Source: Escherichia coli
GTDB taxonomy: Bacteria; Pseudomonadota; Gammaproteobacteria; Enterobacterales; Enterobacteriaceae
Assembly: GCF_030384885.1 (NCBI RefSeq)
Contig: NZ_CP128613.1
Strand: one strand, 5' to 3'
Length of the DNA: 64,000 nucleotides
Part shown: positions 5,339 to 58,610 of the stretch, in pieces
Position numbering within the stretch: the stretch's first letter is position 1
How the letters are laid out: each line of letters begins with the position of its first letter
Made by a program: the position numbers and the translations under genes
Notes under the pieces: generated by a model
Seen by the model: only the letters and a program-made list of their open reading frames with translations
Told to the model about the DNA's origin: nothing
Databases searched by the model: none

Positions 5339-6355
5339 ATGAACGCTAAGATAATTGCCTCGCTGGCCTTCACCAGCATGTTCAGCCTCAGCACCCTGTT
5401 AAGCCCGGCGCACGCCGAAGAGCAGGAAAAGGCGCTGAATTTCGGCATTATTTCAACGGAATCACAGCAAAACCTGAAACCGCAATGGACGCCGTTCTTA
5501 CAGGATATGGAGAAGAAGCTGGGCGTAAAGGTCAACGCCTTCTTTGCCCCGGACTACGCGGGCATTATCCAGGGGATGCGCTTCAATAAAGTGGATATCG
5601 CCTGGTACGGCAACCTGTCGGCAATGGAAGCAGTGGATCGCGCCAACGGTCAGGTCTTCGCCCAGACGGTCGCGGCGGATGGATCGCCGGGTTACTGGAG
5701 CGTGTTGATCGTCAACAAAGACAGTCCGATCAACAACCTGAACGATCTGCTGGCGAAGCGTAAAGATCTCACCTTTGGCAATGGCGATCCTAACTCCACC
5801 TCTGGCTTCCTCGTCCCCGGCTACTACGTCTTCGCCAAAAACAATATCTCCGCCAGCGACTTCAAGCGCACCGTCAACGCCGGGCATGAAACCAACGCGC
5901 TGGCCGTCGCCAACAAGCAGGTGGATGTGGCGACCAACAACACCGAGAACCTCGACAAGCTGAAAACCTCCGCACCGGAGAAGCTCAAAGAACTGAAGGT
6001 GATCTGGAAATCGCCGCTGATCCCAGGCGATCCGATCGTCTGGCGCAAAAATCTTTCCGAAACCACCAAAGACAAGATCTACGACTTCTTTATGAACTAC
6101 GGCAAAACGCCGGAAGAGAAAGCGGTGCTGGAGCGCCTGGGCTGGGCCCCGTTCCGCGCCTCCAGCGACCTGCAACTGGTGCCGATTCGCCAGCTCGCGC
6201 TGTTTAAAGAGATGCAGGGCGTGAAAGGCAATAAAGGGCTGAATGAGCAGGACAAGCTGGCAAAAACCAGCGCCATTCAGGCGCAACTGGATGACCTGGA
6301 CCGCCTGAACAACGCGTTAAGCGCGATGAGTTCGGTGAGTAAAGCGGTGCAGTAA
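5339..6355 (+). CDS. phnD: Phosphonate ABC transporter periplasmic binding protein
   Basis: 338 aa with N-terminal signal peptide ending AHA-EE; operon position. Confidence 0.95.
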   Translation: MNAKIIASLAFTSMFSLSTLLSPAHAEEQEKALNFGIISTESQQNLKPQWTPFLQDMEKKLGVKVNAFFAPDYAGIIQGMRFNKVDIAWYGNLSAMEAVDRANGQVFAQTVAADGSPGYWSVLIVNKDSPINNLNDLLAKRKDLTFGNGDPNSTSGFLVPGYYVFAKNNISASDFKRTVNAGHETNALAVANKQVDVATNNTENLDKLKTSAPEKLKELKVIWKSPLIPGDPIVWRKNLSETTKDKIYDFFMNYGKTPEEKAVLERLGWAPFRASSDLQLVPIRQLALFKEMQGVKGNKGLNEQDKLAKTSAIQAQLDDLDRLNNALSAMSSVSKAVQ

Positions 6356-6480: not shown

Positions 6481-7260
6481 ATGCAAACCATCACCATTGC
6501 CCCACCCAAGCGCAGCTGGTTCTCGATCTTCAGCTGGGCCGTTGTTCTCGCTGTACTGGTCGTCTCGTGGCAGGGCGCGGAAATGGCCCCGCTCACGCTG
6601 ATCAAAGACGGCGGCAACATGGCAACATTCGCCGCCGACTTCTTCCCGCCCGATTTCAGCCAGTGGCAGGATTACCTCACCGAAATGGCCGTCACGCTGC
6701 AAATCGCCGTCTGGGGCACTGCGCTGGCAGTCGTTCTCTCCATCCCCTTCGGCCTGATGAGCGCCGAAAACCTGGTGCCGTGGTGGGTGTACCAGCCCGT
6801 GCGCCGTCTGATGGACGCCTGCCGCGCCATTAACGAAATGGTCTTCGCCATGCTGTTCGTGGTCGCCGTCGGTCTCGGGCCGTTCGCTGGCGTGCTGGCG
6901 CTGTTTATTCACACCACCGGCGTGCTTTCCAAACTGCTTTCCGAAGCGGTGGAAGCGATTGAACCCGGCCCGGTGGAAGGTATTCGCGCCACTGGTGCCA
7001 ACAAGCTCGAAGAGATCCTCTACGGCGTGCTGCCGCAGGTGATGCCGCTGCTGATCTCCTACTCCCTCTATCGCTTCGAATCCAACGTCCGTTCGGCCAC
7101 CGTTGTTGGCATGGTCGGCGCTGGCGGGATCGGCGTCACGCTGTGGGAAGCGATTCGCGGTTTCCAGTTCCAGCAAACCTGCGCCCTGATGGTGCTGATT
7201 ATCGTCACGGTCAGCCTGCTGGATTTCCTCTCTCAACGGTTGCGTAAGCACTTTATCTGA
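6481..7260 (+). CDS. phnE: Phosphonate ABC transporter permease (uninterrupted reading frame)
   Basis: 259-aa hydrophobic multi-TM ORF with no internal stop or frameshift. Confidence 0.9.
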
Positions 7261-8459: not shown

Positions 8460-9040
8460 CCCTGGAAACCGCTTTTATGCTTCCCGTGCAGGATGCCCAG
8501 CACAGTTTTCGTCGCCTGTTAAAGGCCATGAGCGAGCCGGGCGTGATTGTCGCCCTGCATCAGCTCAAACGCGGCTGGCAGCCGCTGAATATCGCCACCA
8601 CCAGCGTGCTGCTCACGCTGGCCGATAACGACACGCCGGTGTGGCTTTCCGCGCCATTAAGTAACGATATCGTCAGCCAGAGCCTGCGTTTTCATACCAA
8701 CGCCCCGCTGGTCAATCAGCCGGAACAGGCGACCTTCGCAGTGACGGATGAGGCGATTACCAGCGAGCAGCTCAACGCCCTTTCCACCGGCACCGCCGTT
8801 GCGCCGGAAGCCGGTGCGACGTTGATTTTACAGGTCACCAGCCTGAGCGGCGGACGCATGCTGCGCCTCACCGGCGCGGGTATTGCCGAAGAACGGATGA
8901 TCGCCCCGCAACTGCCGGAGTGCATTCTGCACGAACTCACCGAGCGCCCGCACCCGTTCCCGCTCGGCATCGACCTGATCCTGACCTGCGGCGAGCGCCT
9001 GCTGGCTATTCCGCGAACCACTCTTGTGGAGGTGTGCTGA
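8456..9040 (+). CDS. phnH: C-P lyase core complex subunit PhnH
   Basis: 194-aa ORF; start overlaps phnG stop (translational coupling). Confidence 0.9.
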
Positions 9041-10104
9041 TGTACGTTGCCGTGAAAGGGGGCGAGAAGGCGATCGACGCCGCCCACGCCCTGCAAGAGA
9101 GCCGACGCCGGGGCGATACCGATTTGCCTGAACTGAGCGTCGCCCAGATTGAACAGCAGCTTAATCTCGCGGTGGATCGCGTGATGACCGAAGGCGGCAT
9201 TGCCGACCGCGAACTGGCCGCACTGGCGCTGAAACAGGCCAGTGGCGATAACGTTGAAGCAATTTTCCTGCTGCGCGCCTACCGCACGACGCTGGCAAAA
9301 CTGGCGGTAAGCGAGCCGCTCGACACCACCGAGATGCGTCTCGAACGCCGTATCTCCGCCGTTTATAAAGACATTCCTGGCGGCCAGTTGCTTGGCCCGA
9401 CCTACGACTACACCCATCGCCTGCTGGATTTCACCCTGCTGGCGAATGGCGAAGCGCCGACGCTGACCACCGCCGACAGCGAGCAAGCCCCATCGCCGCA
9501 CGTTTTCAGCCTGCTGGCGCGTCAGGGGCTGGCGAAGTTTGAAGAGGATAGCGGCACACAGCCGGATGACATCACCCGCACGCCGCCGGTTTACCCCTGC
9601 TCACGCTCCTCCCGCCTGCAGCAGCTCATGCGCGGAGACGAAGGCTATTTGCTGGCGCTGGCCTACTCCACCCAGCGTGGTTACGGACGCAATCACCCGT
9701 TCGCAGGCGAAATCCGCAGTGGCTATATCGACGTCTCTATTGTGCCGGAAGAGCTGGGATTTGCGGTGAACATCGGCGAACTGCTGATGACCGAGTGTGA
9801 AATGGTCAACGGTTTTATCGACCCGCCGGATGAGCCGCCGCACTTCACGCGCGGCTACGGGCTGGTGTTCGGCATGAGCGAGCGCAAAGCGATGGCAATG
9901 GCGCTGGTTGACCGCGCTCTACAAGCCCCGGAGTACGGCGAGCACGCGACAGGCCCGGCGCAGGATGAAGAGTTCGTGCTGGCGCATGCCGACAACGTCG
10001 AAGCCGCAGGCTTTGTCTCGCACCTCAAACTCCCGCACTACGTCGATTTCCAGGCCGAGCTGGAGCTACTCAAACGTCTGCAACAGGAGCAGAACCATGG
10101 CTAA
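9040..10104 (+). CDS. phnI: C-P lyase subunit PhnI
   Basis: 354 aa from ATG 9040 overlapping the phnH stop (ATGA... overlap); ORF-track version is N-terminally extended. Confidence 0.9.
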   Translation: MYVAVKGGEKAIDAAHALQESRRRGDTDLPELSVAQIEQQLNLAVDRVMTEGGIADRELAALALKQASGDNVEAIFLLRAYRTTLAKLAVSEPLDTTEMRLERRISAVYKDIPGGQLLGPTYDYTHRLLDFTLLANGEAPTLTTADSEQAPSPHVFSLLARQGLAKFEEDSGTQPDDITRTPPVYPCSRSSRLQQLMRGDEGYLLALAYSTQRGYGRNHPFAGEIRSGYIDVSIVPEELGFAVNIGELLMTECEMVNGFIDPPDEPPHFTRGYGLVFGMSERKAMAMALVDRALQAPEYGEHATGPAQDEEFVLAHADNVEAAGFVSHLKLPHYVDFQAELELLKRLQQEQNHG

Positions 10105-10942
10105 TCTGAGCGGCTACAACTTTGCCTACCTCGACGAGCAGACCAAACGCATGATCCGCCGCGCCATCTTAAAAGCGGTGGCGATCCCCGGCTATCAGGT
10201 GCCGTTTGGCGGGCGCGAGATGCCGATGCCGTACGGCTGGGGAACCGGCGGCATACAGCTTACTGCCAGCGTGATTGGTGAAAGCGACGTGTTGAAGGTG
10301 ATTGACCAGGGCGCGGATGACACCACCAACGCGGTGTCGATTCGCAACTTCTTTAAGCGCGTGACCGGGGTAAACACCACTGAACGTACGGATGATGCGA
10401 CGCTTATCCAGACGCGCCACCGCATCCCCGAAACGCCACTGACCGAAGATCAGATCATTATCTTCCAGGTGCCGATCCCGGAACCGCTGCGCTTTATCGA
10501 GCCGCGCGAAACGGAGACCCGCACCATGCACGCGCTGGAGGAGTACGGCGTGATGCAGGTGAAGCTGTATGAAGATATCGCCCGCTTCGGTCATATCGCC
10601 ACCACCTACGCCTATCCGGTGAAGGTGAACGGGCGCTACGTCATGGACCCATCGCCGATCCCGAAATTCGATAACCCGAAAATGGACATGATGCCCGCCC
10701 TGCAGCTGTTCGGCGCAGGGCGCGAGAAGCGCATCTATGCGGTGCCGCCGTTTACCCGCGTGGAAAGTCTCGATTTCGACGATCACCCGTTCACCGTTCA
10801 GCAGTGGAATGAGCCATGCGCCATCTGCGGATCGACCCACAGCTATCTCGACGAAGTGGTGCTGGATGACGCCGGAAACCGCATGTTTGTCTGCTCCGAT
10901 ACCGATTATTGCCGCCAACAGAGCGAGGCGAAAAGCCAATGA
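10097..10942 (+). CDS. phnJ: C-P lyase catalytic subunit PhnJ
   Basis: 281 aa from ATG 10097; C-terminal Cys cluster CAICGS...CSDTDYC. Confidence 0.9.
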   Translation: MANLSGYNFAYLDEQTKRMIRRAILKAVAIPGYQVPFGGREMPMPYGWGTGGIQLTASVIGESDVLKVIDQGADDTTNAVSIRNFFKRVTGVNTTERTDDATLIQTRHRIPETPLTEDQIIIFQVPIPEPLRFIEPRETETRTMHALEEYGVMQVKLYEDIARFGHIATTYAYPVKVNGRYVMDPSPIPKFDNPKMDMMPALQLFGAGREKRIYAVPPFTRVESLDFDDHPFTVQQWNEPCAICGSTHSYLDEVVLDDAGNRMFVCSDTDYCRQQSEAKSQ

Positions 10943-11697
10943 ATCAACCGTTACTTTCGGTCAATAACCTGACCCACCTCTACGCACCGGGCAAAGGCTT
11001 CAGCGACGTTTCTTTTGATTTATGGCCGGGGGAAGTGCTGGGCATCGTCGGGGAATCCGGCTCCGGGAAGACCACGCTGCTGAAATCAATCTCCGCGCGC
11101 CTGACGCCGCAGCAGGGGGAGATTCACTATGAAAACCGTTCCCTCTATGGCATGAGCGAGGCCGACCGCCGTCGCCTGCTGCGCACCGAATGGGGCGTGG
11201 TGCATCAGCATCCGCTCGACGGCCTGCGCCGTCAGGTGTCAGCAGGCGGCAATATCGGCGAACGGCTGATGGCGACCGGGGCGCGTCATTACGGCGATAT
11301 TCGCGCCACCGCGCAGAAGTGGCTGGAAGAGGTGGAGATTCCCGCCAACCGTATCGACGATCTGCCGACCACTTTTTCCGGCGGCATGCAGCAGCGTTTG
11401 CAGATTGCCCGCAACCTGGTGACGCATCCGAAGCTGGTGTTTATGGACGAGCCAACCGGCGGGCTGGATGTGTCAGTGCAGGCACGCCTGCTCGACCTGC
11501 TGCGCGGTCTGGTGGTGGAGCTGAACCTGGCGGTGGTGATTGTCACCCATGATTTGGGCGTCGCCCGCCTGCTGGCGGACCGTTTGCTGGTGATGAAACA
11601 GGGTCAGGTGGTGGAGAGTGGGTTAACCGACCGCGTACTCGACGACCCACATCATCCGTATACCCAGTTGCTGGTGTCATCGGTTTTGCAGAATTGA
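10939..11697 (+). CDS. phnK: C-P lyase-associated ABC-type ATPase PhnK
   Basis: 252 aa; Walker A GESGSGKTT; start overlaps phnJ stop. Confidence 0.9.
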   Translation: MNQPLLSVNNLTHLYAPGKGFSDVSFDLWPGEVLGIVGESGSGKTTLLKSISARLTPQQGEIHYENRSLYGMSEADRRRLLRTEWGVVHQHPLDGLRRQVSAGGNIGERLMATGARHYGDIRATAQKWLEEVEIPANRIDDLPTTFSGGMQQRLQIARNLVTHPKLVFMDEPTGGLDVSVQARLLDLLRGLVVELNLAVVIVTHDLGVARLLADRLLVMKQGQVVESGLTDRVLDDPHHPYTQLLVSSVLQN

Positions 11698-11720
11698 GTT
11701 GCAACACTTTGCGCACTGAT

Positions 11721-11830
11721 CCCCTCACCCCGGCCCTCTCCCGGAGGGAGAGGGAGAAAACCGGCGCAATATTCAACACCGTGCACAAGCGGTCCCCTCG
11801 CCCCTTTGGGGAGAGGGTTAGGGTGAGGGG
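11721..11830. repeat. Second copy of the boxC-like repeat, phnK-phnL spacer
   Basis: Same two modules as at 6368-6462 but in swapped order. Confidence 0.6.
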
Positions 11831-11874
11831 CAATGTGCGCACCGCTCCCAAACATGCGAACCACGAGGCGAAAA

Positions 11875-12555
11875 ATGATTAACGTACAAAACATCAGTAA
11901 AACCTTCATCCTGCACCAACAAAACGGCGTGCGTCTGCCTGTATTACAACGCGCCTCGCTCACCGTCAACGCAGGCGAATGCGTGGTGCTCCACGGTCAC
12001 TCCGGCAGCGGCAAATCAACTCTGCTACGCTCGCTGTACGCCAACTATCTGCCCGACGAAGGGCAAATCCAGATCAAACACGGTGACGAATGGGTAGACC
12101 TGGTCACCGCGCCAACGCGCAAAGTGGTGGAAATCCGCAAAACCACTGTCGGCTGGGTAAGCCAGTTTCTGCGCGTCATCCCGCGTATTTCGGCACTGGA
12201 AGTGGTGATGCAGCCGCTGCTCGATACCGGCGTTCCGCGTGAAGCCTGCGCCGCTAAAGCCGCCCGATTACTGACGCGCCTGAACGTGCCTGAACGCCTG
12301 TGGCACCTGGCACCATCGACCTTCTCCGGCGGCGAACAGCAGCGCGTCAACATCGCCCGTGGCTTTATCGTCGACTATCCGATTCTGCTGCTGGATGAAC
12401 CCACCGCCTCGCTGGACGCTAAAAACAGCGCCGCCGTAGTGGAACTGATCCGCGAAGCCAAAGCCCGTGGCGCAGCCATCGTCGGCATCTTCCATGACGA
12501 AGCCGTACGCAATGACGTCGCCGACCGCCTGCACCCAATGGGAGCCTCTGCATGA
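11875..12555 (+). CDS. phnL: C-P lyase-associated ABC-type ATPase PhnL
   Basis: 226 aa from ATG 11875; Walker [10 protein letters not shown], signature FSGGEQQR. Confidence 0.9.
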
Positions 12556-13688
12556 TTATCAATAACGTCAAACTGGTGCTGGAAAACGAAGTGGTGCACG
12601 GTTCACTGGAAGTACAGGACGGTGAAATCCGCGCCTTTGCCGAAAGCCAGAGCCGCCTGCCAGAGGCGATGGACGGCGAAGGCGGCTGGCTGCTGCCGGG
12701 GCTGATTGAGCTGCATACCGACAACCTCGATAAATTCTTCACTCCGCGCCCAAAAGTGGACTGGCCTGCCCACTCGGCGATGAGCAGCCACGACGCGCTG
12801 ATGGTGGCGAGCGGCATCACCACCGTGCTGGATGCCGTGGCGATTGGCGACGTGCGCGACGGCGGCGATCGGCTGGAGAATCTGGAGAAGATGATCAACG
12901 CCATCGAAGAGACGCAGAAACGCGGGGTCAACCGCGCCGAGCACCGTCTGCACCTGCGTTGCGAACTGCCGCATCACACCACGCTGCCGCTGTTTGAAAA
13001 ACTGGTGCAGCGCGAACCGGTGACGCTGGTATCGCTGATGGACCACTCGCCGGGCCAGCGCCAGTTCGCCAATCGCGAGAAGTATCGCGAATATTACCAG
13101 GGCAAATACTCGCTCACCGATGCGCAGATGCAGCAGTACGAAGAGGAACAGCTGGCGCTTGCCGCACGCTGGTCGCAGCCGAATCGCGAAACCATCGCCG
13201 CAATATGCCGCGCGCGACAAATTGCCCTCGCCAGCCACGATGACGCCACGCGCGCGCACGTTGCCGAATCCCACCAGCTTGGCAGCGTAATCGCCGAATT
13301 TCCCACCACGTTCGAAGCGGCGGAAGCTTCGCGCAAGCATGGCATGAATGTATTGATGGGCGCGCCGAATATTGTGCGCGGCGGTTCGCACTCCGGCAAC
13401 GTGGCGGCCAGTGAACTGGCACAGCTTGGTCTGCTGGATATCCTCTCTTCCGACTACTACCCCGCCAGCCTGCTCGATGCGGCATTTCGCGTCGCCGATG
13501 ACGAGAGCAACCGCTTTACTCTGTCGCAGGCGGTGAAGCTGGTGACCAAAAATCCGGCGCAGGCGCTTAATCTTCAGGATCGCGGGGTGATTGGCGAGGG
13601 CAAACGCGCCGACCTGGTGCTGGCGCATCGCAAGGGCAACCACATTCATATCGATCACGTCTGGCGTCAGGGTAAAAGGGTGTTCTGA
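12552..13688 (+). CDS. phnM: Amidohydrolase-family phosphonate metabolism protein PhnM
   Basis: 378-aa ORF; start overlaps phnL stop. Confidence 0.9.
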
Positions 13689-14245
13689 TGACGGGAAAAC
13701 TGATTTGGTTAATGGGGGCCTCTGGCTCCGGAAAAGACAGTCTGTTGACGGAACTCCGCCAGCGGGAACAAACTCAGCTACTGGTAGCGCATCGCTACAT
13801 CACGCGCGCCGCCAGCGCCGGAAGTGAAAACCATATCGCCCTGAGCGAGCAGGAGTTTTTTACCCGCGCGGGGCAGAACCTTCTGGCCTTAAGCTGGCAC
13901 GCCAACGGCCTGTATTATGGCATCGGCGTCGAGATTGACCTCTGGCTGCACGCTGGATTTGACGTGGTGGTCAACGGCTCACGCGCCCATCTACCGCAGG
14001 CGCGGGCGCGCTATCAATCGGCGCTGCTGCCCGTTTGTTTACAGGTTTCGCCAGAGATCCTGCGCCAGCGCCTGGAAAACCGTGGCCGTGAAAACGCCAG
14101 TGAAATTAACGCCCGCCTGGCGCGTGCGGCCCGCTATACTCCACAGGATTGCCATACGCTCAACAATGACGGCAGCCTGCGCCAGTCGGTCGACACGCTG
14201 CTGACGCTGATTCATCAGAAGGAGAAACACCATGCCTGCTTGTGA
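13688..14245 (+). CDS. phnN: Ribose 1,5-bisphosphate phosphokinase PhnN
   Basis: 185 aa; P-loop GASGSGKDS. Confidence 0.9.
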
Positions 14246-14666
14246 GCTTCGTCCGGCCACGCAGTACGACACCGACGCGGTTTACGCGCTGATTTGTGAG
14301 CTAAAACAGGCGGAGTTTGACCACCACGCGTTTCGCGTGGGGTTTAACGCCAATCTGCGCGACCCGAACATGCGCTACCATCTGGCGCTGCTGGATGGCG
14401 AAGTTGTCGGCATGATCGGCCTGCATTTGCAGTTTCATCTGCATCATGTCAACTGGATCGGCGAAATTCAGGAACTGGTGGTGATGCCGCAGGCGCGCGG
14501 TCTGAACGTCGGCAGTAAATTACTGGCATGGGCCGAAGAAGAAGCCCGCCAGGCCGGGGCCGAAATGACCGAGCTTTCCACCAACGTCAAGCGCCACGAC
14601 GCGCACCGTTTCTATCTGCGCGAAGGCTACGAGCAGAGCCACTTCCGCTTCACCAAGGCGCTGTAA
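14232..14666 (+). CDS. phnO: Aminoalkylphosphonate N-acetyltransferase PhnO (GNAT)
   Basis: 144-aa ORF; operon position. Confidence 0.9.
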
Positions 14667-14667
14667 C

Positions 14668-15426
14668 ATGAGCCTGACCCTCACACTTACTGGCACTGGC
14701 GGCGCACAGGGTGTTCCCGCATGGGGCTGTGAGTGCGCGGCCTGCGCCAGAGCGCGGCGCTCACCGCAGTATCGCCGCCAGCCATGCAGCGGCGTCGTGA
14801 AGTTTAACGACGCGATCACCCTGATCGACGCCGGGCTGCACGATCTCGCCGATCGCTGGTCGCCCGGATCGTTCCAGCAGTTTTTGCTGACGCACTACCA
14901 TATGGATCACGTGCAGGGGCTGTTTCCGCTGCGCTGGGGCGTGGGCGATTCGATCCCGGTCTACGGCCCGCCGGATGAACAGGGCTGCGACGATCTGTTT
15001 AAACATCCGGGCCTGCTTGATTTCAGCCACACGGTGGAGCCATTTGTGATGTTTGATTTGCAGGGATTACAGGTCACGCCGCTGCCGCTCAACCATTCGA
15101 AACTCACTTTCGGCTATCTACTGGAAACGGCACATAGCCGGGTGGCGTGGCTGTCTGACACCGCAGGCCTGCCGGAAAAAACGGTGAAATTTTTACGCAA
15201 TAATCAGCCACAGGTAATGGTGATTGATTGCAGCCACCCACCGCGCGCGAATTCGCCACGCAATCACTGTGATTTAAACACCGTGCTGGCGCTGAATGAA
15301 GTTATCCGCTCGCCGCGCGTGGTTCTGACACATATCAGCCATCAGCTTGATGTGTGGCTGATGGAGAACGTACTGCCGTCAGGGTTTGAGGCGGGGTTTG
15401 ATGGGATGGAGATTGGGGTGGAGTGA
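14668..15426 (+). CDS. phnP: Phosphodiesterase PhnP (metallo-beta-lactamase fold)
   Basis: 252 aa; HxHxDH motif [10 protein letters not shown]. Confidence 0.9.
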
Positions 15427-15460
15427 TGGGTGAGGGGCGATGCCTGCTCTAAACTCAACA

Positions 15461-15790
15461 TCACCGCCCATACTCATCTTCCATTCTCCGCTCTTCATCT
15501 TCTAGCTGCCGACGCTCCTGATCCAGCTGGCGCTGGCGATCGTCCAGCTGCCTGCGGCGATCTTCAAACTGGCGGCGGCGATCGTCATATTGTCTGCGCC
15601 GATCGTCGTTCACTTCACGCTGCCAGCCGTCGTCGCGCGAATCTTCATAGTCTCGCCCACGGTCAGGGTTATAAGCATCGTTAATCGCCTGCTGAATATT
15701 GCCAATGGTGTCGTCGATAATATCGGCCTGGGCCGGAACGGTGGACAGCGTGAGCAGGGTGAATAAAAGAAATAGCGGAAAACGTTTCAT
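15461..15790 (-). CDS. yjdP: Small secreted repeat protein YjdP
   Basis: 109 aa; signal peptide MKRFPLFLLFTLLTLSTVPAQA followed by reiterated D/R/Q-rich units. Confidence 0.8.
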   Translation of the reverse strand: MKRFPLFLLFTLLTLSTVPAQADIIDDTIGNIQQAINDAYNPDRGRDYEDSRDDGWQREVNDDRRRQYDDRRRQFEDRRRQLDDRQRQLDQERRQLEDEERRMEDEYGR

Positions 15791-15858
15791 TAGCCAACCT
15801 CAAAAAGAAACTCTATCCACATTAGTCATTACTCATCCATGCAAGTAGTGGATGAATC

Positions 15859-16176
15859 TCAATTTTTCCGCTGCTCTATTGCCGTAATCGCCTCCACGCG
15901 TTGTTGATGACGACCGCCTTCGTACTGCGCGCCCAGCCACACATCCACAATCATTTTTGCCAGTTCGAGGCCAACCACTCGTGAACCAAAAGCCAGTGCA
16001 ACTTCACTGGCGTAATGCGGATAATCAGTGCGCTCTGACGACCTGGTTTCTTTATCAATCCCCTCACTCATTGACCATGAATAAAAGGCTGGCACAGCAA
16101 CGCAGAATCCTGCGGTGCCAGCGACATGACCGCCCATTGCTCCGGTACGTTTTTTAATAAGAAACACCGGTTGCAT
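15859..16176 (-). pseudogene. rpiB: rpiB remnant (ribose-5-phosphate isomerase B, internally deleted)
   Basis: 105-aa ORF whose C-terminal ~55 aa (FGSRVVGLELAKMIVD...QRVEAITAIEQR) match the RpiB C-terminus as I remember it, while the N-terminal part does not and the central catalytic segment is missing. Confidence 0.55.
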
Positions 16177-16428
16177 TGATTAATTGTGCTCAGTATTTGC
16201 CGAAGTACAATATATATAATAAATATATAAAACACCTCATATTATTTACAGAAATAATAAATTCGCGTACTTTTCCCTCTTCAGCACAAATGCCTAATAA
16301 AATGGCTCGTTCCGCTCACACTTCCACTTATTAAAGTCGCAAATTCCCAATTATGATAACGCCAGCTTTAAATGACGTATTTTGCATGGATTACATATTT
16401 ACGACATAAATGATAAATGGAGATTTAT

Positions 16429-18414
16429 ATGAATAACTCTCGGTTATTCCGTTTGAGCAGGATTGTTATTGCGTTAACTGCCGCCAGCGGCATGATGGTA
16501 AATACCGCTCACGCAACAGATGAAGCGAAAGCCGCGACTCAATATACCCAGCAGGTTAATCAGCATTACGCAAAATCATTACCGTTTAGCGATCGTCAGG
16601 ACTTTGACGATGCCCAGCGCGGATTTATCGCCCCGCTGCTGGATGAAGGTATTCTGCGCGATGCGAATGGCAAAGTTTACTACCGCGCGGATGATTACAA
16701 ATTTGATATTAATGCCGCTGCGCCGGAAACCGTAAACCCCAGCCTGTGGCGTCAGTCGCAGATCAACGGCATTTCTGGCCTGTTCAAAGTCACCGATAAA
16801 ATGTATCAGGTACGCGGCCAGGATATCTCTAACATTACATTCGTTGAGGGCGAGAAAGGCATTATTGTTATCGACCCACTGGTAACGCCGCCTGCCGCAA
16901 AAGCCGCACTTGACCTTTACTTCCAGCATCGTCCGCAAAAACCGATTGTTGCTGTGATTTACACCCACAGCCACGCCGATCATTATGGCGGTGTGAAAGG
17001 CATTATCTCTGAAGCGGATGTTAAATCTGGCAAAGTGCAGGTGATCGCTCCGGCAGGCTTTATGGACGAAGCCATCAGCGAAAACGTGCTGGCGGGTAAC
17101 ATCATGAGCCGCCGTGCGCTCTACTCTTACGGTCTGTTACTGCCGCACAACGCGCAAGGCAACGTTGGCAACGGCCTGGGCGTGACGCTGGCAACGGGCG
17201 ACCCGAGCATTATTGCGCCAACCAAAACGATTGTCAGAACTGGCGAGAAGATGGTTATCGACGGTCTGGAGTTTGACTTCCTGATGACTCCGGGTAGCGA
17301 AGCGCCAGCCGAAATGCACTTCTATATTCCGGCCCTGAAAGCCCTGTGTACCGCCGAAAACGCCACGCATACCCTGCACAACTTCTACACCCTGCGCGGC
17401 GCGAAAACCCGCGATACCAGCAAGTGGACAGAGTATCTGAACGAAACGCTGGATATGTGGGGTAACGACGCGGAAGTACTGTTTATGCCGCACACCTGGC
17501 CGGTCTGGGGCAATAAGCATATCAATGATTATATTGGTAAATATCGCGATACTATCAAATACATTCACGACCAGACCCTGCACCTGGCGAACCAGGGTTA
17601 CACCATGAATGAAATCGGCGACATGATTAAGCTGCCACCTGCGCTTGCCAATAACTGGGCCAGCCGCGGCTATTACGGTTCTGTTAGCCACAACGCCCGT
17701 GCAGTATATAACTTCTATCTCGGCTATTATGACGGCAATCCAGCTAACCTACATCCGTACGGTCAGGTGGAGATGGGCAAACGTTACGTGAAAGCGCTGG
17801 GCGGTTCCGCCCGTGTCATCAACCTGGCGCAAGAAGCGAACAAGCAAGGGGATTACCGCTGGTCAGCAGAGTTGCTGAAACAGGTGATTGCCGCCAATCC
17901 GGGTGACCAGGTGGCGAAGAATCTGCAAGCAAATAACTTTGAACAGTTGGGTTATCAGGCCGAGTCCGCCACCTGGCGCGGTTTCTACCTGACCGGCGCA
18001 AAAGAGCTGCGCGAAGGGGTGCATAAGTTCAGCCACGGCACCACTGGTTCTCCGGACACCCTTCGCGGGATGTCGGTCGAAATGCTGTTCGACTTTATGG
18101 CCGTTCGTCTCGACAGCGAAAAAGCCGCGGGCAAAAACATCAGCCTGAACTTCAATATGAGTAACGGCGATAACCTCAACCTGACGCTGAACGATAGCGT
18201 GCTTAACTATCGTAAAACGCTACAACCTGAAGCCAACGCCTCTTTCTATATCAGCCGTGAAGATCTGCACGCCGTGCTGACCGGACAAGCCAAAATGGCG
18301 GATCTGGTAAAAGCGAAGAAAGCCAAAATTATTGGCAATGGCGCGAAACTGGAAGAAATTATCGCCTGTCTGGATAATTTCGATTTGTGGGTGAATATCG
18401 TAACCCCAAATTAA
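16429..18414 (+). CDS. yjcS: Alkyl/aryl-sulfatase-like metallo-beta-lactamase fold protein YjcS
   Basis: 661 aa from ATG 16429 (GGAG RBS); signal peptide; HxHxDH motif [11 protein letters not shown]. Confidence 0.85.
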
Positions 18415-25900: not shown

Positions 25901-26590
25901 ATGAAAAAAATTATCGCATTGATGTTGTTTTTGACATTCTTTGCCCATGCTAACGGCTCCGAGCCTGGCAGTCAGTATTTAAAGGCTGCAGAGGCTGGGG
26001 ACCGACGCGCACAATATTTTCTTGCCGACAGCTGGTTTAGCTCCGGCGATTTGAGCAAAGCCGAATATTGGGCACAGAAAGCCGCCGACAGCGGTGATGC
26101 TGATGCCTGCGCGCTGTTGGCGCAGATCAAAATCACCAATCCGGTCAGTCTGGACTATCCACAAGCAAAAGTTCTTGCAGAGAAAGCGGCGCAAGCGGGC
26201 AGTAAAGAAGGTGAAGTAACGCTGGCGCATATTCTGGTAAATACGCAAGCGGGTAAACCGGATTATCCAAAGGCGATTTCGCTGTTAGAAAACGCCTCGG
26301 AAGATCTGGAGAACGACTCTGCCGTCGATGCCCAAATGCTGCTTGGTTTGATTTACGCCAACGGCGTGGGCATTAAGGCCGACGATGACAAGGCAACCTG
26401 GTATTTCAAACGCAGCTCTGCGATTTCCCGAACCGGTTATTCCGAGTACTGGGCGGGAATGATGTTCTTAAATGGTGAAGAAGGTTTTATCGAGAAGAAC
26501 AAACAGAAGGCGCTGCACTGGCTGAACCTGAGCTGTATGGAAGGGTTTGATACCGGGTGTGAAGAGTTTGAAAAATTAACTAACGGTTAA
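25901..26590 (+). CDS. yjcO: Sel1-repeat (TPR-like) protein YjcO
   Basis: 229 aa with signal peptide and repeated AxxWxxKAA Sel1-like motifs. Confidence 0.8.
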   Translation: MKKIIALMLFLTFFAHANGSEPGSQYLKAAEAGDRRAQYFLADSWFSSGDLSKAEYWAQKAADSGDADACALLAQIKITNPVSLDYPQAKVLAEKAAQAGSKEGEVTLAHILVNTQAGKPDYPKAISLLENASEDLENDSAVDAQMLLGLIYANGVGIKADDDKATWYFKRSSAISRTGYSEYWAGMMFLNGEEGFIEKNKQKALHWLNLSCMEGFDTGCEEFEKLTNG

Positions 26591-26665
26591 TGTAGGCCTG
26601 ATAAGACGCGGCAAGCGTCGCATCAGGCATCCACACATTGCCGGGTGTATGTCCCCGGCAATCCT
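26591..26665. repeat. REP (repetitive extragenic palindromic) element
   Basis: gtaggcctgataagacgcg...cgtcgcatcaggc plus gccgggtgtatgtccccggc palindromes between yjcO and gltP. Confidence 0.8.
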
Positions 26666-26668
26666 CAA

Positions 26669-27982
26669 TTATTGATCCGCAGTTTTATCAAATTTGCCCA
26701 GCACTTCGCGCTCATAAGCCAGCGCTTTCTTACGGTCAAATTTGTGTTCCCACTTGGCAATCACCAGCACCGCCAGCGCATTACCCACCACGTTCAGCGC
26801 AGTACGCGCCATGTCGAGGATACGGTCAACACCGGCAATAAACGCCAGACCTTCCAGCGGGATCCCTACGCTGCCCAGCGTTGCCAGCAACACCACAAAC
26901 GACACGCCCGGCACGCCAGCAATCCCTTTCGAGGTCACCATCAGCGTCAGCACCAGAATGATTTCCTGCCAGATGGACAGGTCAATGCCATACAACTGCG
27001 CGATGAAAATAGCGGCAATACTTTGATACAGCGTCGAACCATCAAGGTTAAAAGAGTAACCGGTCGGCACCACGAAACTGGTGATCGACGCCGGTGCACC
27101 GTAGGCTTCCATCTTCTCAATAATTCGCGGCAACACGCTTTCAGAGCTGGCAGTGGAGTACGCCAGAATCAGCTCATCTTTCAGAATACGAATCAGGATC
27201 CAGACGCTTAACCCGCACAGGCGCGCCACAATTCCCAGCACTACCAGCGCGAAGAACAGAATGGCGAAATGCACCAGCAGCACCAGTTTCGCCAGTGGCC
27301 ACAGAGACGAGAAACCAAAGTTAGCCACCGTCACCGCAATCAGCGCAAACACACCCACCGGCGCATAACGCATCACCATATGAGTCACTTTAAACATGGT
27401 TTCAGAGATGGAGCGGAACACGGTCACCAGCGGTTCACGATGCGTCGCGGGCAGGGAGGAAAGCCCCAGACCAAACAGTACCGAGAAGAAGATGATCGGT
27501 AACATTTCGCCTTTCGCCATCGACGCCACAATATTCGTCGGCACCAGAGACAAAATCGTGCCCATAATACCGTGGGAACTGCTCTGTACCGCTTCTGTAG
27601 TGCTCTGATATTTCGAGATATCGACGGTTGCCAGCTGCGACATATCCACCCCAGCACCGGGCTGGAAGACGTTCGCCAGGGTGATCCCCAGAATGATGGC
27701 GACAGTGGTGATCACCTCGAAATAGATAATGGTTTTCGCGCCAATACGCCCGAGCTGTTTGGCATCACCAACACCCGCGATACCCACCACCAGCGTGGAG
27801 ATCACAATCGGCACAACAATCATTTTGATCAGATGGATGAAGATATCACCCGCCGGAGAGAGCAAATTGACGACCAGCCAGTCGCGGCTGTCGCTATGGT
27901 AGTGCAGGTAGCTTCCCAGGAGAATGCCCAGCACCATAGCAAACAGAATCTGCCAGGCCAGGCTGAATTTTATATTTTTCAT
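26669..27982 (-). CDS. gltP: Glutamate/aspartate:proton symporter GltP
   Basis: 437 aa from ATG at 27980-27982 (MKNIKFSLAW...); polytopic. Confidence 0.9.
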   Translation of the reverse strand: MKNIKFSLAWQILFAMVLGILLGSYLHYHSDSRDWLVVNLLSPAGDIFIHLIKMIVVPIVISTLVVGIAGVGDAKQLGRIGAKTIIYFEVITTVAIILGITLANVFQPGAGVDMSQLATVDISKYQSTTEAVQSSSHGIMGTILSLVPTNIVASMAKGEMLPIIFFSVLFGLGLSSLPATHREPLVTVFRSISETMFKVTHMVMRYAPVGVFALIAVTVANFGFSSLWPLAKLVLLVHFAILFFALVVLGIVARLCGLSVWILIRILKDELILAYSTASSESVLPRIIEKMEAYGAPASITSFVVPTGYSFNLDGSTLYQSIAAIFIAQLYGIDLSIWQEIILVLTLMVTSKGIAGVPGVSFVVLLATLGSVGIPLEGLAFIAGVDRILDMARTALNVVGNALAVLVIAKWEHKFDRKKALAYEREVLGKFDKTADQ

Positions 27983-54689: not shown

Positions 54690-55694
54690 TCAGTCGGGAA
54701 GTTGATGAAGAATTTGCCCCAGTCGCTCTTGCAGCGAACCCGAAACCGAAAGATAAGGAATGTTCCTGCGCGATAATTCCTGTTCGTACCACGCCTGCTG
54801 CCGCGCGCGAAACGCCTCTCCTTGCCGGGTGCCATCCTGCACAAAGGGAAATTCCGCGCCGCAAAGCACCACCAGAGAGTATTCCCGCTCCGCCAGCTGG
54901 TGAAGTTCCTTCGGGGCATGACCATATTGATCAAGGGTATAGAACAAGGTCGTGAGTGGCGATGTGTCACATATAAGATAGCGATTAGCTTCTGCTTGTT
55001 GTTCCCGACGTACCTGTTCGCGGGCGATATGCAACAAATCGTCTGCGGTTAAAACACCATTTTTCTCTTCCCAATAGTCGCGACCAAATTCAGCGACATA
55101 CGCCGTGTCGAGCACGTCCGCCAGCGCTTTTGAAAGTGTGCTCTTACCGGTTGATTCGCCACCAAGCAGACAGATACGGCGAACGAAACTGCGATAAACG
55201 TCGTGCGCCAGCATGTAACGATAGCGGTGAACGTCGGAACGAATCAGCGTTCCCGAAGGAGATTTATCGCCAAGTGGACGCTGTAATCGAATGTGTTCAA
55301 CAGGTTGGGCAAAACGCTTTGTCAGCACTTTAGCAAAACCGTCACCATAATCTTCTGCGGTAAATACAGCGTGTGGGCGGCAATGTAATACCTGCAGGCA
55401 CAGCGTCGCCACATAATGACGATGGATGTCGGCATCGGCATCATTATGCGGTATGGCAGGTAAGTTATAACGCGCGATCAGTTCGGGAGTCAGTACCAGA
55501 ACCGTCGCTCGCGGGAAGCTCACTTGCAGCCACGTCAGGCGCTTTTCAGGTTCACAGTCAGGCATTTCCGGCACGGAATAACTGATGATGAACAGTTCTT
55601 CACATTGTGCCAGCGCGGTATTGATCAACCGTTCATGACCACAATGCAAAGGCGCGAATTTGCCAACCACCAGTCCCGTTACGAAAGGCTTCAT
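54690..55694 (-). CDS. NadR-like bifunctional NMN adenylyltransferase / ribosylnicotinamide kinase lacking the N-terminal HTH domain
   Basis: About 334 aa from ATG 55692-55694; nucleotidyltransferase motif GKFAPLHCGH; Walker A GGESTGKST followed by EFGRDYW, resembling the E. coli NadR catalytic domains as I recall them. Confidence 0.7.
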   Translation of the reverse strand: MKPFVTGLVVGKFAPLHCGHERLINTALAQCEELFIISYSVPEMPDCEPEKRLTWLQVSFPRATVLVLTPELIARYNLPAIPHNDADADIHRHYVATLCLQVLHCRPHAVFTAEDYGDGFAKVLTKRFAQPVEHIRLQRPLGDKSPSGTLIRSDVHRYRYMLAHDVYRSFVRRICLLGGESTGKSTLSKALADVLDTAYVAEFGRDYWEEKNGVLTADDLLHIAREQVRREQQAEANRYLICDTSPLTTLFYTLDQYGHAPKELHQLAEREYSLVVLCGAEFPFVQDGTRQGEAFRARQQAWYEQELSRRNIPYLSVSGSLQERLGQILHQLPD

Positions 55695-56248
55695 GATGCC
55701 CGCAGCTCCTTGCGCCACTGATACAAACCATGCCAGGCGTTAATCCAGAACAGGAAATATAAACCGGCGGTCAAGTTTAAACCACGCGTCATATACAGTG
55801 GCACCGCCAGGGTATTCACTGCTAACCAGACGTACCAGTTTTCGATACGTCTTCCCATCAACATGAATTGTGCCAGAACGCTGAAGGTCAAAATCAACGA
55901 ATCCAGCCAGGGGGCCCAGGCATTGGTAAAGGTGTGGAGCAAAAAGCCGTAGCCACCTGCCACGACGACGGCACAGAGCAACAAGAGGAAAAAGTGACTG
56001 GCTTGCGTCCGGCGCACCGGCAAGACATCGCCACCCTGACCTTTCAGCCAGTGGATCCAACCGATGATGCTGGTTGCGATGAAGAATAACTGGAGCGTGA
56101 CATCGGCATAGAGTTGCACGGACCAAAAAACCCAGCCATACAGCATGCTACCAATTATGCCGATCCACCACGTATGCACATTGTTTCTGGCGGCCAGCCA
56201 GACGGAAACCGCGTATGCCAGACACGCGGCGATTTCTGAATAAGACAT
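55691..56248 (-). CDS. PnuC-family nucleoside (nicotinamide riboside-type) transporter
   Basis: 185-aa polytopic ORF with PnuC-like motifs QLYADVTLQLFF and ENWYVWL; GGGAGGG RBS; stop overlaps the start of the NadR-like gene. Confidence 0.7.
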   Translation of the reverse strand: MSYSEIAACLAYAVSVWLAARNNVHTWWIGIIGSMLYGWVFWSVQLYADVTLQLFFIATSIIGWIHWLKGQGGDVLPVRRTQASHFFLLLLCAVVVAGGYGFLLHTFTNAWAPWLDSLILTFSVLAQFMLMGRRIENWYVWLAVNTLAVPLYMTRGLNLTAGLYFLFWINAWHGLYQWRKELRAS

Positions 56249-56270
56249 TGTCCCTCCCTGGAGACGGGTA

Positions 56271-57350
56271 TTAATCCACGTATTTCATCGCGACCCTTGA
56301 AGTCAGGCGCGTGATAAGTTCGTAAGCGCTCACTTTCGTCATTTCAGCGATACGTTCTACGGGCAAACCTTCGCCCCATAAAATGACCGGGTCCCCGGCT
56401 TTATCCTGCGCCTGTGGACCTAAGTCGACGCAGATCATATCCATCGCGACTCGCCCGACAATCGGCACTTCGCGACCGTTCACCAGCACTGGCGTACCGG
56501 ACGGCGCGGCGCGCGGATAACCATCGCCATAACCCATAGCGACTACGCCAAGACGGGTATTACGTTCGCTTACCCAGGTTCCACCATAACCGACAGGCTC
56601 TCCGGCTTTATGCTCACGCACAGCAATCAGGCTGGAGGTCAATGACATTACCGGCTGACAGCCAAAATCGGCACCGGTGGAGCGATCTTCCAGCGGCGAG
56701 ACACCGTAAAGAATGATGCCCGGGCGCACCCAGTCAAAATGTGACTGTGGCCACAGCAGAATGCCCCCCGACGCGGCAATGGAACGTTGACCAGGTTTGC
56801 CTTCACAAAAGGTATTAAAGATATCGAGTTGTTTCTCGGTTGCACCGCATTTTGGCTCATCCGCGCGCGCAAAATGGCTGACAATATTCACCGGCTGACG
56901 AACGTTTTTGCACTGAGTCAGGCGATGATAAAACGTCTCAGCCTGTTCCGGCCTTACGCCCAGACGGTGCATACCGGTATCGAGTTTCATCCAGACGGTA
57001 ACCGGCTCGTCCAGGCTGGCCTCTTCCAGCGCAGCAAGCTGTTCTTCGTTATGCACGGCGGTATGAAAATGTTGCGCAGAAATCGTCGGTAGATCTCTGG
57101 CATCAAAAAAGCCTTCGAGTAACAGTACAGGTTTGGTGATTCCCCCCGCACGCAGTCGCAGAGCTTCTTCGAGACGGGCTACGCCAAAGGCGTCAGCATC
57201 GGGGAGCGTTCGCGCGGTCTCAAGAAGACCGTGACCATAAGCGTTCGCTTTCACCACCGCAACCATTTTACTGGCAGGTGCCAGTTCACGAAGACGTTGC
57301 AGGTTGTGTCGCAGAGCGCGGCGGTTAATCACAACAGTTGCCGCTTGCAT
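56271..57350 (-). CDS. alr: Alanine racemase, biosynthetic
   Basis: 359 aa; PLP-lysine motif [11 protein letters not shown]. Confidence 0.95.
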
Positions 57351-57476
57351 TTGTGTTCCTTTTTTTCAGGTTCTGCCCACCCGTGCAAAACCTCGCTAAA
57401 CAGATAGGACCGGAGTATGCTATTCCACATCCAGGGATGGGTTTATAAACGGCAAGATGATATCGGATTTTCAGCC

Positions 57477-58037
57477 ATGACAAAGATAAAATTTGTTTTC
57501 TTTTTTCTGCTAATCGCAGGTATAACGCCTGCCGCGACGGGGGCTTGCCCGGCGCAGACACCTGACGGTGTCGCAGATAAGTTTTACTCAACCTATGTTT
57601 TTTCTGATACCAGCTTTAAGAGTGAAAAAGACCAGCTGGCATTTTTTCAGAAATACCTCACCCCCTCGCTTTATCAACTGATTGTTGGCGCGTATGACAG
57701 AAATAAACGCGACTACGCCATCGATCCCACGGCCAAACCTACTTTTGGTGACGGGATTATTTTCACGTCTTATCCTTCGGATAGTTACTATGAGAAATTT
57801 GATGGCGTGACACTACCGTCATCGTATAAACCTGGTGATAACAACGTCACTGTCGCCCTCCATTTTCATTTTACCGTTGATGATAAAAAGGCCTGGCAGG
57901 ACGAAGCGCTAATGGCGCGTTCCGCTGATGATGGCTGTTGGCGGATCGACAATATCATATTCCACGAAGACGAAGATAACTCGGTTCTGAGCCTTAAAGA
58001 GTGGCTAAAAAAAGGGATTGAAAGTCCGGCGGAATAA
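57477..58037 (+). CDS. Hypothetical secreted protein (signal peptide, two Cys); alternative start 57417
   Basis: 186 aa from ATG 57477 (MTKIKFVFFFLLIAGITPAATGA...); no family recognised. Confidence 0.55.
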   Translation: MTKIKFVFFFLLIAGITPAATGACPAQTPDGVADKFYSTYVFSDTSFKSEKDQLAFFQKYLTPSLYQLIVGAYDRNKRDYAIDPTAKPTFGDGIIFTSYPSDSYYEKFDGVTLPSSYKPGDNNVTVALHFHFTVDDKKAWQDEALMARSADDGCWRIDNIIFHEDEDNSVLSLKEWLKKGIESPAE

Positions 58038-58082
58038 AGCAGTTCAACGAACTCAGGAAAAGCATTTTACAAGGAGATAGTA

Positions 58083-58610
58083 ATGACCCCAGACCTGGAA
58101 CTACTCAAAAACAAACGTAATCAAATTAAAGAAATCATTGATGAGCTACAGCTTACATTAACCGACGATCCAAATTGGGATGCCCCTTCTGATAACAGTT
58201 ATTTAAATGAAGAAGAACTCGCCATCCCTGAAATTCAGGATAATGTGACGGCAATAAAGGCGACGAATAAATTAATCAGCTGGTTTGGGCAAGATCATGA
58301 AGGTTTTGTCGGCTTATGGCGAGGTCCCAATGCGATCCCCCTCGATAAAGCGCAAGTGGTTCGGCTGAATGATGAAGCTAACTATGAACTAGTCGCCGAT
58401 ACCGTGCCCAATTACCTGATGTTCACCTATTTTTATGGCGATGAAGATACTGAACAACATGAATACAATCGTGTTAAAAAATTACTGACTGATGCAGGAT
58501 TCACCGTTGCTGGCGACATAGAAGCTATCTATGACAATATTGATTACGATAGTCTTCAACCTGAAGATTATAAAGAAGAGCAATATAATCAGGCCCAATC
58601 CCGCCGATAA
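58083..58610 (+). CDS. Hypothetical acidic cytoplasmic protein
   Basis: 175-aa ORF with strong AAGGAG RBS 7 nt upstream; D/E-rich and AT-rich by eye; no family recognised. Confidence 0.6.
   Translation: MTPDLELLKNKRNQIKEIIDELQLTLTDDPNWDAPSDNSYLNEEELAIPEIQDNVTAIKATNKLISWFGQDHEGFVGLWRGPNAIPLDKAQVVRLNDEANYELVADTVPNYLMFTYFYGDEDTEQHEYNRVKKLLTDAGFTVAGDIEAIYDNIDYDSLQPEDYKEEQYNQAQSRR

Follow-up and report, generated by a model that had tools for sequence, protein, structure and literature searches.

What lies between yjdP and yjcS in this strain, and how did the site come to differ from that of Escherichia coli K-12? Across the locus, the window (the whole stretch of 64,000 nucleotides that was analysed) carries phnM, phnN, phnO and phnP on the plus strand, yjdP on the minus strand, an open reading frame (ORF) of 105 amino acids on the minus strand and yjcS on the plus strand, followed by ytcA and mdtNOP. 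The start codon of yjdP ends at position 15790 and yjcS starts at 16429, leaving a gap of 638 bp. A derivative of K-12 carries rpiB, alsR (rpiR) and alsBACEK between the same two genes. According to the papers that cite them, Kim et al. (1997) and Poulsen et al. (1999) have dealt with the rpiB-alsRBACEK genes of K-12, which occupy the same position with phnP and yjdP on one flank and yjcS, ytcA and mdtNOP on the other. A first-pass annotation of the sequence had described the D-allose operon as absent between yjdP and yjcS and the gap as about 640 bp long, and both statements are borne out.

The window (1-64000) is 99.98% identical, with 9 mismatches and 3 gaps, to positions 3106000-3169999 of the chromosome of strain 2013C-4282 (NZ_CP027579.1), which is among the complete-genome strains of Escherichia cryptic clade I (PMC10100065; BMC Biology, 2023). 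Loss of the als operon has already been published and is a known, common deletion polymorphism. We consider it very probable that the D-allose regulon was lost long ago by two deletions and that the interval in the window is their scar, which holds a promoterless, dead stub of rpiB, had a single origin, and spread or persisted by recombination.

Anatomy of the yjdP-yjcS interval

The interval was compared with the K-12 locus (contig L002) by BLAST and global alignment. The left flank, yjdP (15461..15790, minus strand), encodes a DDRRRQL repeat protein and is intact according to PGAP and to a score of 147 bits against NCBIfam NF041443 (cut-off 90), with 97.0% identity to K-12. A match at 96.8% identity extends from 15428 to 15996 of the window (3593-4161 of L002) and covers yjdP, the native 68-bp intergenic spacer between yjdP and rpiB (15791..15858), and the final 138 bp of rpiB. 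Codon mapping and alignment to the structures PDB 1NN4 and 2VVR place codons 107-149 and the stop of rpiB at 15859..15990 on the minus strand (residues 63-105 of the ORF), with 97.8% identity to K-12 rpiB over 138 bp. An internal piece of the gene, codons 29-53, was located by alignment and codon mapping at 15991..16065 on the same strand (residues 38-62 of the ORF). Between the two pieces, RpiB residues 54-106 are missing as an in-frame gap of 159 bp, bounded by direct repeats of CTGGCT that read GCACTGGCT and GTGCTGGCT in K-12. A copy of this repeat at 15991-15996 of the window marks the site of the 159-bp deletion. On the minus strand at 15992-16011, the same deletion has brought a T-rich run, TTTTGGTT, directly 3' of a pre-existing GCCAGTG...CACTGGC hairpin; the terminator-like site that results inside the remnant ORF is probably incidental.

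The internal rpiB piece ends at the junction of a deletion of ~6.55 kb (16066..16074), where a filler of a few bases (~8 bp), CTCATTGA, stands and where, according to landmark coordinates and alignments, about 4391-10947 of L002 are missing. This junction is identical in the O111:H8, PK8566, Z1002, ST69 and HH97 alleles. Next comes what is left of the als operon at its 3' end (16075..16126, plus strand), colinear with 10948-10999 of L002: the final two codons of alsK (CCA TGA) and, downstream of them, a hairpin (16087-16122). The relic is 78.8% identical to K-12 over 52 bp (E=4.8e-4), and the stem of its hairpin is preserved by compensatory change, GTTGGCAC/GTGCCAAC in K-12 standing against GCTGGCAC/GTGCCAGC in the window. 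Alignments and genome searches gave no counterpart for the following ~46 bp of spacer (16127..16173), which was not found in the K-12-type or B2-type als+ alleles or in the O157-type allele. Another ~32 bp of spacer proximal to yjcS (16174..16204) is common with the O157-type allele (about 17749-17786 of contig L008 by local alignment) and is missing from the K-12-type als+ alleles.

The remainder, 16205..16428 (plus strand), is the AT-rich upstream (promoter) region of yjcS, a normal region that matches both the K-12 and the O157 alleles and is present in all states of the locus. Window positions 16205-17000 correspond to 11001-11797 of L002 at 94.2% identity, and the match to the O157 allele is at 92.6%. 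The first-pass annotation had counted an AT-rich spacer as part of the scar. The AT-richness is confirmed (31% GC at 16177-16428, 252 bp, vs 52.5% for the whole window), but the sequence is the upstream region of yjcS that is shared with K-12. The right flank, yjcS itself (16429..18414, plus strand), is an intact alkyl sulfatase gene by PGAP annotation, with 94.7% identity to K-12. The interval holds no foreign gene and no sequence of a mobile element, and a search of it against Rfam gave no match at E<=1, so that no regulatory RNA or known repeat was seen.

Colinear fragments from both ends of the lost block are thus found between intact yjdP and yjcS, with rpiB codons 29-53 and 107-149 as the left-end relics and the alsK stop and hairpin as the right-end relic. 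Pairwise alignment to the K-12 region is colinear with two deletions. K-12 order and orientation are kept throughout, from the two pieces of rpiB over the stop of alsK and its hairpin to the yjcS upstream region, and the description of the remnant as 'scrambled' is wrong; of the earlier wording 'deletion or replacement scar', the deletion stands and the replacement does not. The stub in the window derives from rpiB and the hairpin from the 3' end of alsK. In comparison with K-12, the window is without ~6.55 kb and 159 bp, and no transporter, epimerase, kinase, regulator or active isomerase is left.

The alignments are best explained by the following course of events. From an ancestral state yjdP-rpiB-alsRBACEK-yjcS, a deletion of ~6.55 kb very probably removed the DNA from about codon 28 of rpiB through the divergent promoter region and the genes alsR, alsB, alsA, alsC and alsE, with its far end in the final codons of alsK. 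A second deletion, of 159 bp and in frame, very probably arose by slippage between the two CTGGCT repeats. The leftover promoterless stub of rpiB is open for 105 codons by accident, the frame continuing antisense across the stop of alsK, its hairpin and the adjoining spacer up to an ATG.

The 105-codon reading frame

The 105-aa ORF of the first-pass annotation was found again at 15859..16176 on the minus strand. It is a chimeric ORF on a truncated rpiB pseudogene, and PGAP names it 'RpiB/LacA/LacB family sugar-phosphate isomerase' (WP_001183292.1). The C-terminus had been called RpiB-like, and this is supported by NCBIfam TIGR01120, which matches residues 61-101 (E=1.7e-21), and by PDB 1NN4 and 2VVR. 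The central part had been called unlike RpiB and is not, as residues 38-62 align to RpiB 29-53. A similar statement on the N-terminal part is correct for residues 1-37, which are an antisense reading through the alsK stop, hairpin and spacer and are unrelated to RpiB, and fails for the centre. Descent from RpiB is seen in the alignments to PDB 1NN4 and 2VVR, which fall into two stretches (E about 3e-32), and in a tblastn match to residues 29-149 of K-12 RpiB (E=1e-28). Judged from these alignments, the ORF is an RpiB/LacA/LacB member by descent only, i.e., a pseudogene fragment.

The scores of the ORF fall below those that define the enzymes, with 76.7 bits for TIGR01120 (rpiB; cut-off 138.65), 60.8 for TIGR00689 (the family; cut-off 88.3) and 50.8 for NF004051 (cut-off 135). 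We take Thr68 to be counted with Cys66 among the catalytic residues of E. coli RpiB, as in papers on the structure of the enzyme. In E. coli RpiB, Cys66 has been reported to act as the catalytic base, and an H99N mutant showed a 26-fold loss of kcat (PMC4783025). The ORF is without both Cys66 and His99, which lie in the deleted residues 54-106. The complete fold of ~149 aa with its N-terminal strand (Asp9, His10) is also lacking, RpiB 1-28 being replaced by 37 unrelated residues. With both the N-terminal strand and the active-site block of Cys66/His99 missing, the predicted product cannot be an isomerase. A full-length but divergent isomerase, which the first-pass annotation had named as a finding that would overturn its reading, is ruled out, all scores being below the cut-offs and RpiB 1-28 and 54-106 being gone.

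It has to be asked whether the product of the ORF could nevertheless have a function, be it as an isomerase of minimal or divergent form or as a small protein newly assembled from the RpiB C-terminal helices and a novel N-terminus. We regard this as very unlikely. The frame is open and of constant length in the O111:H8, PK8566, Z1002, ST69 and window alleles, and PGAP carries it as a normal CDS, with no pseudogene flag, in 39 of 39 spread-sampled genomes; an open ORF in the sampled alleles is, however, expected by chance at a divergence of only 2-3%, and in the HH97-type allele the start codon is lost. Among the five scar alleles 13 codons of the ORF are variable, of which 8 are nonsynonymous, including the radical changes G87C and R89S, and 5 synonymous. 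These counts are small, and the mostly nonsynonymous pattern fits relaxed constraint, 8:5 being too few to prove neutrality. The native promoter region of rpiB was removed by the large deletion. A simple scan of 15400-16500 found no sigma-70-like site (weak negative evidence, as the same scan missed the yjcS promoter, which must lie there), and no obvious Shine-Dalgarno sequence was seen upstream of the ORF ATG when the sequence was read by eye. In addition, a terminator-like hairpin lies within the ORF. The ORF is presumably silent in the strain. The hypothesis of gene birth from a deletion scar, under which the accidental ORF would be expressed and maintained as a novel small protein by the ~29% of E. 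coli with the scar, has very little in its favor. The dead stub of rpiB is carried as an ordinary isomerase CDS by RefSeq/PGAP in ~1,570 complete genomes, and metabolic reconstructions made automatically could wrongly credit RpiB activity to them.

Frequency and origin of the scar

The population set consisted of 5,426 complete E. coli genomes. The scar junction segment was found in 1,574 of these genomes (~29%), once in each and at 95-100% identity, the K-12 als operon in 3,405 and a 9.2-kb island of the O157:H7 type in 411 (at least 80% coverage). A chimeric query made of alsB, the junction and the lyxose isomerase gene matched 5,381 genomes at 5,381 chromosomal places. With one place per genome for the three-part query, the als operon, the scar and the O157-type island are therefore essentially mutually exclusive. 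The scar is also present on 18 metagenome contigs. Because the same interval and junctions occur in 1,574 complete genomes, the 638-bp structure is neither chance nor an assembly artefact. Three cleanly separated states occur at the yjdP-yjcS site (als operon, scar, and O157-type lyxose/mannose island), and this polymorphism could be used as a simple typing marker.

The five scar alleles (O111:H8, PK8566, Z1002, ST69 and window) are all exactly 638 bp long, have common junctions and are 0.6-3% apart. Their equal length, common junctions and small divergence across backgrounds indicate a single origin. A scar of the HH97 type was found in 5 genomes (HH97, NZ_CP116409.1, 5732-6266 of contig L004). 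Its rpiB junctions are identical, ~100 bp of the hairpin and spacer are swapped for a shorter sequence with a hairpin of its own, and the ORF without its start is annotated as a pseudogene by PGAP. Strain LF4-1 (NZ_CM141450.1, 6034-7096 of contig L003) carries an independent, IS1-mediated deletion with IS1 joined to ytcA, in which the 5' portion of yjdP is gone together with rpiB, all of the als operon and yjcS. LF4-1 and HH97 have likewise lost the als operon between yjdP and yjcS or ytcA; LF4-1 differs in the IS1 at the junction and in the loss of part of yjdP and all of yjcS, whereas HH97 represents a deeper lineage of the same scar.

The O157:H7-type island is an alternative occupant of the yjdP-yjcS site. 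In an O157:H7 genome (NZ_CP038324.1, contig L008) it lies at 8580-17730, a site that corresponds to 15791-16204 of the window, and it also occurs in genomes of the O55:H7 type. Its genes encode a hybrid sensor kinase, a sugar ABC transporter, a D-lyxose/D-mannose isomerase, an aldolase, a kinase and a response regulator. The island and the scar have ~32 bp of the yjcS-proximal spacer in common, but the island is a gene-bearing replacement of 9.2 kb with no rpiB fragment, and the window has no such genes. That the als operon of the window strain was replaced by foreign DNA, as in O157:H7, and not simply deleted is extremely improbable. The ~46 bp at 16127-16173 without any match and the 10-21% divergence of the scar interior from the K-12 type would agree with a replacement. 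Against this, no foreign gene or mobile element is present, colinearity with the K-12 or O157-type locus extends over everything except the ~46 bp and the ~8-bp filler, and the divergence of the interior is better accounted for by an old or unsampled als haplotype than by an insertion.

The reverse polarity, in which the 638-bp interval would be an ancestral empty site and the als operon an insertion in K-12-like lineages, could draw on the locus being a replacement hotspot with the O157-type island at the same position and on the ~32 bp that the scar spacer shares with the O157-type allele and that K-12-type alleles are missing, but it is effectively refuted and retains only a negligible chance, since a site that had never held the operon would contain no fragments of its two terminal genes (rpiB codons 29-53 and 107-149; alsK stop and hairpin), the rpiB stub is without its own start, promoter and active site, and chance similarity is excluded for rpiB (tblastn, E=1e-28). 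Two narrower links to the O157-type allele were also rejected. Formation of the scar by excision of the O157-type island was discarded, as the two alleles have only ~32 bp next to yjcS in common and no piece of rpiB is left in the O157 allele. A further idea was that the ~78 bp lacking a K-12 counterpart are a relic of the start of the O157 response-regulator gene ('MQPV...' vs 'MKPV...'), but alignment backs only the ~32-bp non-coding stretch.

Divergence is unevenly distributed along the scar. The C-terminal piece of rpiB is 98-100% identical to intact K-12-type rpiB. The internal piece, over 70 bp, reaches only 88.6-90% identity to each of ~3,420 intact rpiB alleles of E. coli; identities of 95% or more were seen with scar alleles only, and there were no intermediates. 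The scar is ~98% identical between the clade I strain and the alleles of E. coli sensu stricto, and the flanking genes show lower identities to K-12 (92.4% for phnP and 94.7% for yjcS). Because the scar, a non-coding or pseudogene sequence, is closer across lineages than several of its flanking genes, exchange of the scar by recombination rather than strictly vertical descent is suggested. The scar very probably arose once and then spread or persisted via homologous recombination, which would account for its presence in ~29% of E. coli and also in the window strain of cryptic clade I. Away from the junctions, the scar may have been homogenised with als+ alleles by homologous recombination, and the ~50-120 bp beside the junctions, which would be unable to recombine with als+ alleles, may have kept an older or unsampled als haplotype. 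The locus could serve as a model of how indel-junction sequence escapes homogenising recombination. At the 5' end of yjcS (16429-17058, 630 bp), allele classes are 87.5-89% identical to each other and 97-99% within, with the adjacent scar at 97-99%; these classes may be old haplotypes hitch-hiking beside the hotspot.

Searches were made for the haplotype from which the diverged sequence may have come. The junction segment and the scar-type spacer had no als+ match among the 5,426 complete E. coli genomes. A 24-mer of the spacer and a codon-degenerate pattern across the internal deletion junction each gave 0 matches in 100,044 species-representative genomes. A scan of metagenomes with the scar-type hairpin gave 18 contigs, all of them scars and none with alsK upstream, so that the donor haplotype was not found there. 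On one contig (L018, reverse complement, 577-1663) the scar is joined to an unrelated AT-rich ORF resembling a glycosyltransferase. Two gut metagenome contigs, L024 (3130-3288) and L031 (566-719), appeared to be intermediate alleles with the large deletion and the 159-bp block kept, which is K-12-type in one and B2-type in the other. They were rejected as evidence for the order of the deletions, as 0 of the 5,426 complete genomes had such a form. In addition, both contigs are short and end beside a variable region, and a stretch of 24 nt at the switch point is shared with B2-type rpiB. The two contigs, which have the accessions OGGX01003690.1 and OIYW01011750.1, are probably assembly chimeras of strain mixtures.

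D-allose use and strain context

A tblastn search of the 64-kb window with K-12 AlsR, AlsB, AlsA, AlsC, AlsE and AlsK gave only generic ABC-ATPase similarity (PhnC, PhnK, PhnL and UvrA), and the D-allose regulon, defined by the presence of alsR, alsB, alsA, alsC, alsE and alsK, is lacking in the window. On chromosome NZ_CP027579.1, a query made of the scar, reverse-complemented alsB and alsK matched one place, the scar itself, and no alsB or alsK was found elsewhere at the sensitivity of megablast. The first-pass annotation had noted that als genes elsewhere in the genome would speak against its reading, and none were found in the window by tblastn, nor were alsB and alsK found on the near-identical chromosome. 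EAEC 042, a strain that tests negative for allose on Biolog plates, has been reported to be without rpiB, rpiR and alsBACEK (PMC2808357). E. coli W is without alsBACEK and cannot catabolise allose (PMC3032704). From its gene content and these published als-negative strains, the window strain is predicted not to grow on D-allose.

EAEC 042 and E. coli W are like the window in the absence of the D-allose regulon between the same flanking genes. The allose-negative phenotype was measured in those two strains, whereas it is predicted only in the window strain. The two papers report the absence and do not describe the scar, and the likeness drawn to them is one of regulon absence. EAEC 042 and W also belong to E. 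coli sensu stricto, in contrast to the window strain of cryptic clade I. The scar predicts no use of D-allose in the cryptic clade I strain and in ~29% of complete E. coli. The fine anatomy of the scar and the frequency of the three states were not found described in the literature searched; they are routine comparative genomics, and the finding is unsurprising to specialists.

Per-gene identity to K-12 across the window is 92-99%, because the strain belongs to cryptic clade I. The earlier statement that the strain is not K-12-like at this locus is correct as far as it goes, but the scar is common to 29% of complete E. coli in several lineages and is thus a weak marker of strain identity. The real distinction of the strain is its membership of cryptic clade I and not the scar.

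Other differences from K-12 were seen in the window. At 54690-58610 there are extra genes, with an NadR-like NMN adenylyltransferase/kinase gene (with no full NadR match) and a gene for a PnuC nicotinamide riboside transporter between tyrB and alr, and two hypothetical ORFs (206 and 175 aa, one of them weakly lipoprotein-like) between alr and dnaB. The full arrangement at 54690-58610 is present in only 118 of 5,426 complete genomes. The spacer between yjcO and gltP measures ~78 bp in the window (26590-26669), whereas K-12 has about six tandem REP/BIME-like units of ~113 bp (21427-22067 of L002), and this difference is ordinary variation in repeat copy number. In the near-identical record, PGAP annotates a gene of the DUF2713 family (about 63062-64000) as a frameshifted pseudogene. 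The phnE gene of the window (6481-7260, 780 bp) is annotated as intact. We take phnE of K-12 to be a pseudogene with an 8-bp insertion, and the phosphonate transporter may be functional in the window strain.
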